A stretch of 64,000 nucleotides of DNA from an uncultured Planctomycetota bacterium (GTDB lineage: Bacteria; Planctomycetota; Planctomycetia; Gemmatales; Gemmataceae): contig CAWKHF010000005.1 in the NCBI GenBank assembly GCA_963849325.1, positions 672,001-736,000 on the forward strand, in the 5' to 3' direction. Each line of letters opens with the position of its first letter. The first letter of the stretch is position 1. Positions 12,331 through 46,497 of the stretch are shown one piece after another. The position numbers and the translations under genes are program-made. The notes under the pieces were generated by a model, which had not been told where the DNA came from, did no database searches, and saw only the letters and a list, made by a program, of their open reading frames with translations.

Positions 12331-12355
12331 CCGAGCCTGAAGCGTAAGCGAAGGA
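12331..12355. repeat. Single arm of REP family C (GAGCCTGAAGCGTAAGCGAAG)
   Basis: Identical to the arms at 47674-47727 and 53841-53894. Confidence 0.75.
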
Positions 12356-25125: not shown

Positions 25126-25190
25126 TGTTTCGCCGCGACGCGCAGCGGAGCGCGGGACTCCCGCGCTCCGCTGCGCGTCGCGGCGAAACA
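25126..25190. repeat. REP/REPIN-like palindrome, family A
   Basis: Near-perfect 32-bp arms between convergent genes. Confidence 0.85.
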
Positions 25191-28562: not shown

Positions 28563-28696
28563 GGCAACCTCTCCCGAAAAGCCAGTAGTGCAACCGATCC
28601 CGGCTCGGAACAAGCCGCAACGCCTCCATTCGTGGATGTGTCTATCTCTCATCCTATCCCTCGGACGCGCCTCTCGCAAGAAAAAGAGTTCCCGGT

Positions 28697-28757
28697 TTAG
28701 CCGCGACGCGCAGCGGAGCGCGGGACAGACCCGCGCTCCGCTGCGCGTCGCGGCTAA
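28697..28757. repeat. REP/REPIN-like palindrome, family A
   Basis: Same arms as 1836-1891. Confidence 0.85.
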
Positions 28758-28778
28758 CCAAAAAAGGGCGGCTCATTC

Positions 28779-40157: not shown

Positions 40158-40315
40158 ATCGCCCTGCCAGACGTGGAAGGAAAAAAGCGAAAAGCGGTAC
40201 GTCTTGAGATTTCTGTTGATAGCGAGACAATTTCGGCCCCTTGCGCGAACCTTGGCTGGTGCTTTGGGTGTCGTTTCTGGGTGACATTGTTGCGTTCTCA
40301 GTGGAGATGACGTTC

Positions 40316-41155
40316 ATGCGCGCCCTGACGAGTTGGGAGAGCCTTCAGCCGCTTGTCGGCACAACTTCAGAGAGCGCCGACCTTGACTTCAAAGCGACAC
40401 TGGATCCGTCGAAGGGCAAAATCGAATTTGCGAAGGACGTCGCTGCGCTGGCCCATGTGTTGGGCGGTCATGTGCTTGTCGGCGTATCCACCGATATGAA
40501 TGGAATCCGTTGCACGGGGTTCCACGGCATCGAGAAGGACCTTGCAACCGAGATCACCAAAGTCATCGAGGAACAGGTTAAGGATCGCTGTCGGCCAACG
40601 CCGATCTTCAATGTTCGATCATTTGGCCTGCCGGGATCGCCGAAAGTGGTTGTCGTGGTTGCCATCGAGGCAAGTGCCCGCGCACCGATTGGCGTCTGCC
40701 TTCGCCAAGACAGGGGTGGTCTCCTTGTCGATAAGGGATGGGCATTCCCATACCGCGTCGGCGCACTGACCGAATTCCTTCACCCGGACCAGTTCGGAGT
40801 CTACGAATCCATGACCGCCCGCCGTGCCGCCGCCATCCTGACTTCCATTCCCGCGAACGAACGCGAGCACATCATCCTTCGTTGGGTGGTACATGCAACA
40901 GTGCTGGGCACTGGGTACGGGGACGGTCAGAGCGCTCATCTCGAATCCGTGGCGGTCCGGTTCCTATGTGTCGATCTGCTTGGCAACGCGGCATCGTTCA
41001 GCGAGTTGGATGGGGCAGCACGAATCGACGTGCCGCTTGACCAGATCCAGACCGTTTGGAGGACAACTTGGAGGGCAACGGAAGGTTGGGCGGTTTCGAT
41101 CAACGGCAGTATCCAACAAACCGATGGCGAATGGCAGTACTGGCCCTCGATCTGA
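40316..41155 (+). CDS. Schlafen/AlbA_2 domain protein (cassette-like, lower GC)
   Basis: ESADLDFK...FAKDVAALAHVLGGHVLVGV N-terminal motif; followed by attC. Confidence 0.75.
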   Translation: MRALTSWESLQPLVGTTSESADLDFKATLDPSKGKIEFAKDVAALAHVLGGHVLVGVSTDMNGIRCTGFHGIEKDLATEITKVIEEQVKDRCRPTPIFNVRSFGLPGSPKVVVVVAIEASARAPIGVCLRQDRGGLLVDKGWAFPYRVGALTEFLHPDQFGVYESMTARRAAAILTSIPANEREHIILRWVVHATVLGTGYGDGQSAHLESVAVRFLCVDLLGNAASFSELDGAARIDVPLDQIQTVWRTTWRATEGWAVSINGSIQQTDGEWQYWPSI

Positions 41156-41430
41156 GCCGTCGTTAGCGTAGTGACTCAGGGCCGAACACGGCGCTGCGGC
41201 AGACCGGCCACGCGGCTAGCAGTTACTCGTGCTACAGCGCCGCGCTCCGCGTGAGCCGGCAGCTTCTATGATGCCAGGCCACTCGTCAAGAGGAAAATCA
41301 CCTTTTCTCGGCGTTAGTCTCCTCTCTTCCTCCCGGAACAGAGAGAGGCTAGCCGGGGGTCCAGGGGGCGGCAATCAGCGCCCCTGGTCGCCGCACGGAG
41401 GCGGCGAAATCTTCGGCAGGACGCCGACGC

Positions 41431-41585
41431 TGTCGGGGCTCCCATGCTTCTTATCCGAGCGTGGGTTCAAGACCCTGCCCAAATGGGATGCGAAGAAAGG
41501 TTGCGGGCTGCCCCATCTGAGCGCGAGGATTAAACCCCAGCAGCCGGCCGAGCACACCCGCAACCGCTCAGGAACTTCCCCGACA
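41431..41585 (-). ncRNA. Predicted bridge/seek RNA
   Basis: Closing stem 41578-85/41431-38; two internal loops whose unpaired strands match the target and donor junction sequences. Confidence 0.75.
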
Positions 41586-41609
41586 ATGACAACGCCTTGT
41601 CACTATCCG

Positions 41610-42623
41610 TCAGGCCGCCGCCTGTTGGCGGACTCCTTCGTGGTACAACCAACGCACGAAGCGGTTGGCCACGGCCGCTATCACCACCGTACTCGGTTTG
41701 CCCCGTGCCTTCAGACGCTCGGCCAGTTGCCGCCAACGCGGCTGCAGACGAGCCAACAGCCAGGCCGCCTCGATGAGCACGCGACGCAGTTCGGGATTGG
41801 CCGCCCGGATCAAACCGGCGTCGGCCTCACGCACGCCCGAGGAGCGGTTGCACGGCGTCAGGCCGCAGTACCGCGCCAACTGCTTGCCGGTTCGGAAACG
41901 GTCGAAGCGACCGATCTCGGCCCGCAACGTCCAGGCGGTGACCGGACCAATGCCCTTGATCGTCCGCAGCCAAGTTACGGTGCCGTCCACAGCGGTGACT
42001 TGTTGGAGACGTTCTTCGACGGTGCGGATCTCCTGGACGATCCAGGCCAGCCGACGCAGGCGTTGTTGCATGACCCAGCGTGCTTGTTCGGGCAGTTGAG
42101 CTTGATGCTCCAGCCAGGCGTGCCAGGCCCGCGTCCAGCGGTTGTGGCTACAGCGTAGGCGGTGTTCCCGTAGCAGGGCACCGATCTGGAGCTTGAGATT
42201 GCGTCGCTGGGCGGCCAGTTGTTGGCGGTCGCGGACCAGGGTACGGAGTTCACGGAGCTGCTGGGGTGCAATCCAGACGCGGGGTAGGTAGCCGACCCGT
42301 TCGAGGTCGGCCAGGACGCGGGCGTCGGAGAAGTCGGTTTTGTCGGGCGACTGCTTCATGCGGCTGACGAATCCGGGGTGGGCGAGGTGGACGGGCCAGG
42401 CGTAGCGGTCGGCGAGTTCTTCGGCGAGGTTGGCGGCTCCGGTGCAGGCTTCCAGGGCGGCGCCGCGGACGGCACCGAATCGCCGGACGGCCTGATCGAT
42501 GGCGTCGGCGGAGTCAGGCACGGCGCGGTTACACAAGACCTGACCCGTGGGGTCCAAGACGCACAGTTGGACGGCGTGTTGGGAGTAGTCCAGTCCGACG
42601 AACAGTGGTAGAGTGGTGGACAT
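41610..42623 (-). CDS. IS110 family recombinase/transposase
   Basis: DEDD RuvC motifs (GLDY, LEACTG, KTDFSDA) and C-terminal GIG...AEIG...F...YCGLTP..RSSG. Confidence 0.95.
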   Translation of the reverse strand: MSTTLPLFVGLDYSQHAVQLCVLDPTGQVLCNRAVPDSADAIDQAVRRFGAVRGAALEACTGAANLAEELADRYAWPVHLAHPGFVSRMKQSPDKTDFSDARVLADLERVGYLPRVWIAPQQLRELRTLVRDRQQLAAQRRNLKLQIGALLREHRLRCSHNRWTRAWHAWLEHQAQLPEQARWVMQQRLRRLAWIVQEIRTVEERLQQVTAVDGTVTWLRTIKGIGPVTAWTLRAEIGRFDRFRTGKQLARYCGLTPCNRSSGVREADAGLIRAANPELRRVLIEAAWLLARLQPRWRQLAERLKARGKPSTVVIAAVANRFVRWLYHEGVRQQAAA

Positions 42624-42805
42624 GTCGGGTTGCTCCAGATGGGGTGGCTTTTACTGGGTTACTCCATAATACCGCCGGCTTGTCGTCGGTGGGAGCAACC
42701 CGGCATCATCCCCATCTGAGCTTGTTGTTCGGCCTCTCTGGTTGCCCCATCATTACGTTTTGCGATACACTATGCTTATCGTTGCCCTGTTGAGGAGGTC
42801 AATTG

Positions 42806-42997
42806 ATGCACACGGTGAAGTACATCCACTGGGAGGAGGAGGGAGCCTGGCTGGGCTACCTTCAGGACTTCCCGGACTACTGGACGCAAGGTGAGACGCT
42901 TGAAGACTTGAAGGAACACTTGCGTGACTTGTATGCGGATTTGAGCGGTGGTCAATTCTCAGGAATTCGCCGAGTCGATGACCTGGACGTGGCATGA
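42806..42997 (+). CDS. hicB: HicB-like antitoxin (short)
   Basis: WLGYLQDFPDYWTQGETLEDLKEHL; ATGA overlap with hicA. Confidence 0.78.
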   Translation: MHTVKYIHWEEEGAWLGYLQDFPDYWTQGETLEDLKEHLRDLYADLSGGQFSGIRRVDDLDVA

Positions 42998-43233
42998 AGT
43001 GTGTTGACTTGATCCGTGCGATTGAAGGACTCGGCTGCGAGTTCGTGCGTCATGGCGGGAAGCACGACTGGTATCGTAATCCGACGACGGGGGTATCTCA
43101 GCCGGTGCCACGGCATCGGGAGATTAAGGATCGGCTGGCTCGCCACATCATCAAGATGTTGAGCAATCCGCCGGCGTCTCCTGCGAGTAGTCCGGAGGGT
43201 GAACAGCCGACGCCTCCCGTCAGCAATCAGTAA
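42994..43233 (+). CDS. hicA: HicA family mRNA interferase
   Basis: GCEFVRHGGKHDWYRNP...VPRHREI. Confidence 0.88.
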   Translation: MKCVDLIRAIEGLGCEFVRHGGKHDWYRNPTTGVSQPVPRHREIKDRLARHIIKMLSNPPASPASSPEGEQPTPPVSNQ

Positions 43234-44747: not shown

Positions 44748-44835
44748 CAGGAGATGAAGAAGGCCAGCGAACGAAGAATGGCCCGGCAACGTCGGCGACC
44801 AACTGCCAAGGAGGAGCCGACGCGCGCGGGGGAGT

Positions 44836-44909
44836 GCGGGTGTAGCTCAAACGGATAGAGCAACCTGGTGCTAACGGGAAGGTTGCAGGTTCGAGTCCTG
44901 CCACCCGCA
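44836..44909 (+). tRNA. tRNA(-like) gene, anticodon GCT, short variable arm, Arg-like body; CCA not encoded
   Basis: Acceptor GCGGGTG/CACCCGC, D arm GCTC/GAGC, T arm GCAGG-TTCGAGT-CCTGC, anticodon loop GTGCTAA. Confidence 0.8.
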
Positions 44910-45075
44910 TCCCTTTCTTACTCTTTTTTCTGAGTTTTGAGAAGTAGAGCGGCCAAGGGGGCAGGTTTTGTCCCCGCTCGCCCCTGGCGCAAGCCTGGCG
45001 CGATTGGATGGCGTCTCTGCGCTGGAACAAGGACGTAATGGCATGAGAAAAATCGACACAAATCCTCTGCTACAA

Positions 45076-45104
45076 TTTACTTACGACGATATACTGTGTA
45101 TAAT
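45076..45104 (+). promoter_or_regulatory. Transposase promoter
   Basis: TTTACT-17 nt-TATAAT. Confidence 0.65.
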
Positions 45105-45111
45105 GGCAGCA

Positions 45112-45193
45112 GAGAAAAACAAAGCCTCCGAGGTTGCTGGAAACAACCTCGGAGGCAGATGCAACCGGCGGGTTGACGCCAGAAGCACCCTCA
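45112..45193 (-). ncRNA. Predicted cis-antisense RNA to the transposase leader
   Basis: Minus-strand TTCCCA-18-TAGAAT (45229-45200); perfect 13-bp stem 45124-45156 followed on minus by TTTGTTTTT. Confidence 0.5.
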
Positions 45194-45240
45194 ATCGCAA
45201 TTCTAGCGATCCCGCCGACTCTCTGGGAAGGGATCGCTCC

Positions 45241-46497
45241 ATGAATCCCTCTGATCCACGCCAGCAAAGAGCGGAACAGATCCTTGCGACCGGCATGATT
45301 GTCCGGCAGGGACACATCTTCTTCGTGCCGAGTCAGTCCGGCAAGCCGCGCCACTCCGTCATGCTGGACGGCGAAGCGCCCTCTTGCGACTGCGCCGATT
45401 TTGAAGAACGACAGCTTCCGTGCAAGCACATTTTCGCCGTGCAAATGATGCTTGAGCGGGAGAAGACCGGCGAACCGCTACCCGAGCCGGTCAAGGTGCC
45501 GTTGCCTCCCAAGCAGAAGACCTATCCGCAGGACTGGCCGAACTACAATCTTGCCCAGACCAACGAGAAGGACCACTTTCAGGCGCTCTTGGCGGACCTA
45601 TGCCGGAACGTCCCGGAACTTCCACCTGCGAAGACCGGCCGCAAGCGTATCCCGCTGGCCGATGCGCTCTTCGCGGCCACGTTCAAAATTTACTCCACTC
45701 TCTCGGCGCGGCGCTTCATGTGCGACCTGGAGGAAGCCCACCGGCGCGGGCACGTCGGACAGGTGCCCTGCTTCAATAGCGTCCTCAACTGCCTGGACAA
45801 CGCCGACGTGAAGCCGATCCTCTTTGACCTCATCCGGCAAAGCGCTCTACCCTTGCGCGAAGTAGACACGGACTTCGCCGTGGATTCCAGCGGCTTTATG
45901 ACCTCGCGGTTCGTCCGCTGGTTCGATCAGAAGTACGGCAGCACGAAGCAGGCGCATGAGTGGGTCAAGGTCCACATCATCACCGGCGTCAAGACGAACA
46001 TCATCGCCGCCGTGGAAATCCTCGACAAGCAGGCGAACGACTTTCCGCAGTTACCTGCGCTCGTCCGGGCAGCGGCCAAGGGCTTCCGCGTGGCGGAGGT
46101 CAGCGCCGACAAGGCATACGCCGGCCGCGAGAACTTCGACGCCGTGGCGGAAGTCGGAGGCACGCTGTACGCGGCCTTCAAGTCGAACACGACCGGCAGC
46201 GTCGGCGGGCTATTCGAGAAGATGTTCCATCTGTTCTGCCTGAACCGGGAGGACTACCTGCGGCACTACCACAAGCGCTCGAACGTCGAAAGCACGTTCA
46301 GCATGGTCAAGCGGAAGTTCGGCGATTCCCTGCGGTCCAAGTCGGACGCGGCGATGGTCAACGAGGCGCTGGCGAAGCTGCTCTGCCACAACCTCGTCGT
46401 GGTGATTCACGAGATGTACGAACTGGGGATTGACCCGACGTTCGGCGCTCCGACCAGAGAGGAATTACCCTGGTTCATTCTGCGGTTCCCAGGTTGA
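45241..46497 (+). CDS. SWIM zinc finger + DDE transposase (DDE_Tnp_1-type)
   Basis: SWIM CDCADF...CKH; DW.NYN; DSSGF; WVKVH; ADKAY; YHKRSNVESTFSMVKRKFG. Confidence 0.9.
   Translation: MNPSDPRQQRAEQILATGMIVRQGHIFFVPSQSGKPRHSVMLDGEAPSCDCADFEERQLPCKHIFAVQMMLEREKTGEPLPEPVKVPLPPKQKTYPQDWPNYNLAQTNEKDHFQALLADLCRNVPELPPAKTGRKRIPLADALFAATFKIYSTLSARRFMCDLEEAHRRGHVGQVPCFNSVLNCLDNADVKPILFDLIRQSALPLREVDTDFAVDSSGFMTSRFVRWFDQKYGSTKQAHEWVKVHIITGVKTNIIAAVEILDKQANDFPQLPALVRAAAKGFRVAEVSADKAYAGRENFDAVAEVGGTLYAAFKSNTTGSVGGLFEKMFHLFCLNREDYLRHYHKRSNVESTFSMVKRKFGDSLRSKSDAAMVNEALAKLLCHNLVVVIHEMYELGIDPTFGAPTREELPWFILRFPG

Follow-up and report, generated by a model that had tools for sequence, protein, structure and literature searches.

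Experiments published in 2024 established that IS110 and IS1111 elements, those that target attC sites included, are guided by RNA (PMC11208160, PMC11187229), the guide being named bridge RNA in one study (Durrant 2024, PMC11208160) and seekRNA in the other (Siddiquee 2024, PMC11187229). That attC-targeting IS1111 elements are known, as a preliminary description of the locus studied here had stated, is borne out by ISKpn4 and ISPst6, for which seekRNAs were shown and which target one attC end (PMC11187229). According to these reports, IS1111 elements are told from IS110 elements by inverted repeats of 7-17 bp that lie subterminally, next to short extensions of unequal length, and further by a long non-coding region downstream of the gene (PMC11187229, PMC11208160). 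In IS1111 seekRNAs, the guide complementing the top strand is described as preceding the one complementing the bottom strand (PMC11187229, section 9), and for ISEc11 a promoter is reported to form at the circle junction (PMC11187229). Other members of the group, ISPa11 and ISPpu9, are described as targeting palindromic repeats (PMC12288879).

Here, we analyzed an element of this type in a 64,000-nucleotide stretch of planctomycete DNA (the window). The whole insertion sequence (IS) occupies 41263..42717 on the minus strand and measures 1,455 bp with both copies of its core dinucleotide and 1,453 bp with one. The core is AG in the sense of the IS and CT on the plus strand, where direct reading gives CCGGCAG-CT/TCTATG for the left junction at 41263 and CCCCAT-CT/GAGCTT for the right junction at 42717. 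A DNA search of its own assembly (8.16 Mb, 14 contigs, 84.7% complete) returned four full copies that are 98-100% identical. Each is 1,455 bp long including both cores, and alignment of the four shows identical ends with flanks that diverge exactly at these ends, yielding the same boundaries as those proposed in the preliminary description. In gene sense, the aligned copies read AG/ATGGGGATGATGCCGGG ... CCTGGCATCATAGA/AG, and none of the 30 positions that vary among them lies within the guide segments described below.

The recombinase gene (41610..42623, minus strand) encodes a DEDD/Ser protein of 337 aa, with matches in Pfam, NCBIfam, and the PDB. Both Pfam domains score above their cut-offs (DEDD_Tnp_IS110, PF01548, 72.4 bits; Transposase_20, PF02371, 87.4 bits), as does the NCBIfam model NF033542, "IS110 family RNA-guided transposase" (203.5 bits vs. 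a cut-off of 140). The nearest solved structures are the ISCro4 and IS621 transposases, with E values of about 1e-16 (4.8e-16 for IS621). Candidate catalytic residues are D12, E58, D97, and D100, E58 by position only, and the serine motif GLTPCNRSSG contains S262; alignment to ISCro4 keeps GLD (D12), KTDfsDAR (D97 and D100), and GLTPcnrsSG (S262). The reading frame is intact in all four copies, which differ by 0-4 aa. The protein had been called compact; it is of ordinary size, since the solved chains of IS621 and ISCro4 have 328 and 341 aa, respectively.

Both structural marks of IS1111 elements are present. By direct reading, the left side starts with the core AG (42717-42716) and a 6-nt extension, ATGGGG (42715-42710), after which comes the subterminal inverted repeat ATGATGCCGGG (11 bp; 42699..42709, minus strand). 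The right repeat, CCTGGCATCAT (41268..41278, minus strand), matches the left one at 10 of 11 positions; beyond it, the extension has 3 nt, AGA (41267-41265), and the second core AG (41264-41263) closes the element. As for the non-coding DNA, there are 345 nt of it downstream of the recombinase gene vs. 92 nt upstream. Together with the Pfam and NCBIfam matches, these features uphold the original assignment of the element to the IS1111 type.

Two further observations concern the copies in this genome. In the fourth copy (G000:C12:958690-960145), 19 of 20 private base differences fall within element positions 258-529, equivalent to 42460-42189 of the window, despite which its protein differs by only 4 aa; this cluster looks like a patch gained from a diverged relative by recombination. 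On another contig, a 195-bp fragment (L005, G000:C7:287260-287454) matches the recombinase gene in its 5' part at 87% identity and is probably the relic of a related element. A match to the target site profile described below lies 6 kb from it, at C7:281169-281220.

Searches of genome collections gave 12 homologous loci with 47-82% protein identity, nine of them from Planctomycetota metagenome-assembled genomes, which backs the word planctomycete in the preliminary description indirectly. Among these loci, the inverted repeats differ in sequence yet remain complementary. The element is rare among relatives, being found in 2 of 151 genomes of the taxonomic family, its own included (E <= 1e-60). 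Among the plasmids of PLSDB, the best match is 33% identical and all of the 5,000 best records are below 60%; four contexts of plasmid relatives were opened, and integrons were seen in none of these four. The closest homologue, L043 (82% identity, same attC-type target), lies on a 2.7-kb contig binned as Chloroflexota, and L044 lies on a 2.3-kb contig binned as Betaproteobacteria. These assignments could be binning errors or could reflect cross-phylum transfer.

attC sites are imperfect palindromes of about 60-140 bp with a variable center, bounded by R'' and R' boxes (..AAC / GTT..), and they occur in arrays beside an integron integrase gene. In the window, the left (R''/L'') part of an interrupted site of this type spans 41181..41262 on the plus strand (nhmmer match C5:713169-713264), with the R'' box GCCGAAC at 41181-41187. 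The right part (42718..42733, plus strand) consists of GAGCTTGTT and then the R' box GTTCGGC (42727-42733), which places the crossover 9 bp before the GTT of R'. Once rebuilt, the site reads GCCGAAC...GTTCGGC over 100 bp, and all four insertions sit in similar imperfect palindromes of ~100 bp that run from GCCGAAC or GGCTAAC to GTTCGGC. The IS lies on the minus strand and the flanking genes on the plus strand, so that it is antisense to the cassettes. An unoccupied exact copy of the target predicted from the guides (see below) is found at G000:C5:750904-750919. Searching the own genome with a loose version of the target pattern (<=2 mismatches) gave 343 matches vs. 685 for the reversed control, which is uninformative beyond the exact empty site.

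We built a site profile from the four rebuilt sites and the empty site. In the own genome, it matches 34 places on nine contigs, five of which are the building sites, and these are mostly solitary; on the flanks of the homologues it matches at L043 only, the contig of L051 ending 27 nt past the element. This scatter could mean that the targets belong to a genome-wide REP-like family of palindromic repeats, with a merely superficial likeness to attC. Such a reading would also accommodate the folded empty site, in which there is one bulged base per arm rather than both on one arm, the short palindromes targeted in L046, L047, and L069, and the outcome of our search for an integron integrase, which found none over the NCBIfam cut-off in the own assembly, 84.7% complete as it is (best 85 vs. 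265 bits), or in the same-genus genome G038. We nevertheless regard a REP-like family as improbable, because 25 of 61 genomes from this taxonomic family encode such an integrase over the cut-off and, in one of these, G049, the profile finds 22 co-oriented sites directly beside the intI gene, with starts 298-587 bp apart (mostly about 300-550). The G049 sites have canonical boxes, reading GCCTAAC ... GGCTGCTGAGCTTGGGC-GTTAGGC, and ribosome-binding sites after R', where GGAGG is often seen. In 21 of the 22, CGCGGCTGCTGAGC is present 10 bp before GTT, identical at 12 of 14 positions to the target read from the guides, whereas in the background DNA of this locus the best match to the target per 125 nt usually has 5-6 mismatches. 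Since a profile made from its target sites finds a 22-site array beside intI, the sites used by the element are, as judged from their sequence, attC-type sites, and the target motif is a conserved part of the R'-proximal arm. The attC targeting proposed in the preliminary description is thereby borne out.

The array in G049 (L062, G049:C30, 7283-16924) is itself an integron with at least 22 cassettes and near-identical attC sites, and it reaches the end of its contig. In the window, the interrupted site follows a gene with an AlbA_2 domain (40241-41155) and precedes a hicB/hicA pair. The latter (42803-43233, plus strand) encodes an antitoxin of 64 aa that resembles HicB (weak UPF0150 match) and, with a 4-nt overlap, the 79-aa toxin HicA (PF07927), and its place directly after the interrupted site is like that of a cassette-borne toxin-antitoxin pair. 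Further downstream are a tRNA-Ser(GCU) at 44835-44912 and then, at 44968-46497, a DDE transposase of 509 aa that contains a SWIM zinc finger, and the 40-47 kb region looks like a small island of mobile genes beside housekeeping genes (epimerase and acyl-CoA dehydrogenase). Elsewhere in the window, a palindromic repeat of ~64 bp (GTTTAGCCGCGACGCGCAGCGGAGCGCG plus its complement), unrelated to the attC-type sites, has three copies at 1837-1891, 25127-25190, and 28695-28760, and a second short repeat, GAGCCTGAAGCGTAAGCGAAG, is found at 12333, 47674, and 53844.

The non-coding region downstream of the gene contains two segments that match the target (both on the minus strand). Target guide 1, the left target guide of the preliminary description, is GCCGGCUG + CU at 41539..41548, its DNA letters GCCGGCTGCT being read directly at 41548-41539. 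Its pairing partner is the right flank together with the core, on the top strand in IS sense, and of the four own insertion sites, two match it at 10 of 10 positions and the other two at 9 of 10. Target guide 2, formerly the right target guide, is CGCUC + AG followed by a handshake AU at 41515..41523 (GCTCAG by direct reading at 41522-41517, then AT), and it matches the own left flank at four of five positions plus the core at all four sites. The guide complementing the gene-sense top strand is located 5' of the one complementing the bottom strand, as in IS1111 seekRNAs. The other genomic copies had been predicted to sit at the CT of attC sites: all four are in attC-type sites with their cores at CT and flanks that match both guides, and none of the four is at a guide-unrelated place. 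In the preferred target deduced earlier, GCCGGCTGCTGAGCG, the last G is borne out by none of these sites: the four own sites and L043 all have T at this position.

We then scored the guides of each locus against its own flanks and against the flanks of other loci. For guide 1 (7 nt outside the core), 10 of 11 loci match the reverse complement of their own right flank at 6-7 of 7 positions, the exception being L048 with 0/7. L049 was omitted from this count as it is without a right end. Non-cognate pairs have a mean of 2.85/7 (n = 106), three of them reaching 6 and none 7. For guide 2 (5 nt), 11 of 12 loci match their own left flank at 3-5 of 5 positions, L054 being the exception with 1/5, and non-cognate pairs have a mean of 1.375/5 (n = 128). 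Because the window copy and L043 share a guide and one element is represented twice, as L046 and L047, these loci amount to nine distinct guide 1 sequences, eight of which match. In addition, guide 1 of L069, from a related genome, matches at 7/7 by eye. Both junctions of L045 have GG as their core, with corresponding letters in guide 1, guide 2, and the right donor guide. Short as the matches in the own element are (10, 7, 8, and 5 nt), it is therefore hardly conceivable that the protein alone picks the target and that the guide-like matches are coincidental, since among homologues whose proteins are 47-82% identical the guides change in step with the flanks, and RNA guidance in the IS110 family has been shown by experiment (PMC11187229, PMC11208160). 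These findings confirm that the target guides, found by direct reading where the preliminary description had placed them, change together with the flanking DNA beyond chance.

The guides are embedded in a conserved RNA structure. The bridge/seek RNA region with its target and donor loops spans about 41432..41574 (minus strand; RNA ends predicted). Using RNAalifold on 10 homologous sequences, we obtained a consensus of 24 pairs, 10 of them with compensatory changes, that leaves the guides unpaired; the alignment was made without L047 (identical to L046), L051 (with a hairpin insertion of ~100 nt), and L053 (truncated). On this consensus, 92.7% of cells are paired vs. 79.4% in shuffles and 33-51% with partners slid, and the covariation score is 0.327 vs. 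0.099 in shuffles, with none of 500 shuffles attaining the observed value. The first module, common to the homologues, runs from a stem through CUCG, guide 1 (~10 nt), a GGGN hairpin NCUC, G, guide 2 (5 nt + core), and AUG to a closing stem, and the second has the same shape and ends with AUAGAAG in the homologues. The hairpin between the target guides (GGGG...CCUC; 41525..41538, minus strand) is helix 2 of the consensus, with 96% of cells paired. When the whole downstream region is folded as a single sequence, its minimum free energy is weakly better than that of shuffles (z = -2.31), and this fold departs from the consensus in the donor loop, where the left donor guide is paired into a helix. 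No Rfam family matched between 40500 and 43500, even at permissive thresholds. Folding and covariation across homologues, the check put forward with the preliminary description, thus speak for the RNA position and the guide order that it gave, as does the covariation of guides and flanks.

Between this RNA and the right end (41265-41431 of the window, minus strand), the own element and L043 are longer than the other homologues by ~130 nt. The additional sequence contains three G+C-rich hairpins, one of which shows compensatory changes between the own element and L043, and no U tract follows the three.

Covariation says little about the donor guides, as the element ends differ so little between loci. 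On the left side, the donor guide is proposed to be UCCCAUUU (41481..41488, minus strand; DNA letters TCCCATTT read directly at 41488-41481), which can pair with the left end AGATGGGG using two G-U pairs. In the homologues, its CCCA part alone is conserved, a possible partner for TGGG in the left end, and its core-pairing part varies (UU, AU, UG, CU, AC) without tracking the core. The proposed right donor guide is AUAAGA + AG, then CA (41445..41454, minus strand), with AGAAG read directly at 41451-41447 and followed by CA. In the homologues it is AUAGAAG, which is the same as their right end CATAGAAG, and in L045, with its GG core, it is AUAGAGG; the own guide has one extra A relative to the homologues, so that its contiguous match is 5 nt only. 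It is plausible from this agreement of motifs, which includes one informative case in L045, that the second loop fits the joined element ends. The earlier reading of the donor loop therefore stands in part: both guides are located where it had put them and have motifs that agree with the ends, but for the left guide the part proposed to pair with the core was not confirmed to exceed chance. A similar distinction applies to the handshakes. After the core of guide 2, almost all loci have AUG, the letters with which the left end starts, and its AU fits the handshake described for IS621 (PMC11208158). By contrast, the CA after the right donor guide, proposed as a donor-side handshake, suits the own consensus target, but the homologues, which have AA, AC, UU, or AG whatever their target (by eye), do not support it.

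It might be argued from the variable core-pairing part of the left donor guide, and from a second loop that conserves only CCCA and AUAGAAG, that the RNA guides target choice only, as a short form of seekRNA, and that the ends are recognized mainly by the protein via the subterminal repeats. These repeats covary as inverted repeats, an 82-nt short seekRNA is reported to be enough for movement, and end recognition may, according to the same source, differ between the two groups (PMC11187229). On the other hand, the second loop is built like the first (CUCG-guide-GGGC hairpin GCUCG-guide), the right donor guide of L045 tracks its GG core, and bridge RNAs of IS1111 elements have been reported with donor-binding nucleotides (PMC11208160). 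On balance, we consider recognition of the ends mainly by the protein unlikely, albeit the most serious of the alternatives, and favor a second loop that would bind the joined ends.

If the ends are joined in a circle, they may also create a promoter. A candidate -35 box, TTGACG (41284..41289, minus strand), would be completed only at the circle junction, by 17 nt and then GAAG/AT. TTGAC stands at a constant distance from the right end in 11 of the 11 loci having a right end, and the joined ends would put GAAGAT 17 nt after it, while a scan of the linear element (41200-42800) found neither promoter nor terminator. We infer that this junction could function as a promoter.

Taken together, these findings make us highly confident that the element is an active or recently active IS1111-group member of the IS110 family, with a DEDD/Ser recombinase guided by a bridge RNA and aimed at the R'-proximal arm of attC. 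The recombinase would be guided by a bridge RNA (seekRNA) of ~140 nt, presumably expressed from the DNA directly downstream of its gene. In the first loop, one guide would pair with one target strand to the right of the crossover and the other with the opposite strand to the left, both taking in the two base pairs of the core (plus-strand CT). The second loop would most likely hold the element ends as they are joined in the excised circle. The target programmed in this way, GCCGGCTG-CT-GAGC, would correspond to a conserved piece of the R'-proximal (L') attC arm in this bacterial family. Because the target lies within this conserved L' arm, the element would land 9-10 bp before the GTT of R', in antisense, and split the site, which would probably no longer function as attC.

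What we describe is a new example of the mechanism described in 2024 rather than a new mechanism, and it opens no new question. What may be new is a lineage of its own, directed at the other attC arm and living on orphan attC sites. Tentatively, and with the balance of probability somewhat against it, one may picture a planctomycete bridge-RNA lineage that came to target attC independently of the IS1111-attC group of Pseudomonas and Klebsiella and on the opposite (R'-proximal) arm, whose guides drift with the local attC (own element and L043 vs. L051) and which persists on orphan attC sites after loss of the integrase. If so, RNA-guided insertion sequences would have made attC their landing pad more than once. 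The element also illustrates that RNA-guided IS elements reach attC sites beyond those of clinical integrons, and it is a natural IS1111-type bridge recombinase whose guides, target, core, and ends can all be read from the sequence. Since these parts were checked by four copies and a dozen relatives, it is a usable candidate for the toolbox of RNA-guided recombinases.

Among the described systems, the IS1111 elements ISEc11, ISPa11, and ISPpu9, which have linear or REP targets, share the same element build; they differ in that the target here is of the attC type, and in that our element is known from sequence alone. IS621 is alike in its recombinase with DEDD and Ser parts, in the two internal loops of its RNA, each with two guides round a hairpin, and in its 2-nt core, CT in the orientation of the preliminary description (PMC11208158). 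It is unlike the present element in that the RNA is here downstream of the gene, not upstream, the subterminal inverted repeats are long, and the guide order in gene orientation is reversed.

The closest parallel is with ISKpn4, ISPst6, ISPa25, and ISPa21, which are described as having the same IS1111 build, an RNA downstream of the gene, and the top-strand guide first (PMC11187229), and as targeting one attC end with the element antisense to the cassettes (PMC11187229, PMC3001079). Reported sizes of seekRNAs, 82 nt for the short and about 150 nt for the long form (PMC11187229), are similar to those of the present element, whose target loop measures ~78 nt and whose RNA region as a whole measures ~143 nt. 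ISPa21 and ISPst6 are placed near the 5' end of attC (PMC3001079), whereas our element is near the 3' (R') end, a contrast that rests on one sentence of that source. As a further difference, the recombinase studied here is distant from all PLSDB plasmid proteins, as seen above from the best identity of 33%. Tetu and Holmes (2008) reportedly defined the IS1111-attC group by insertion in attC antisense to the cassettes, and its transposases are said to form a monophyletic ISPa21/ISPst6 clade with the same insertion position. The element of the window is likewise inserted in attC and antisense to the cassettes; its low identity to the plasmid relatives and its R'-side position argue against a close kinship with the ISPa21/ISPst6 clade.
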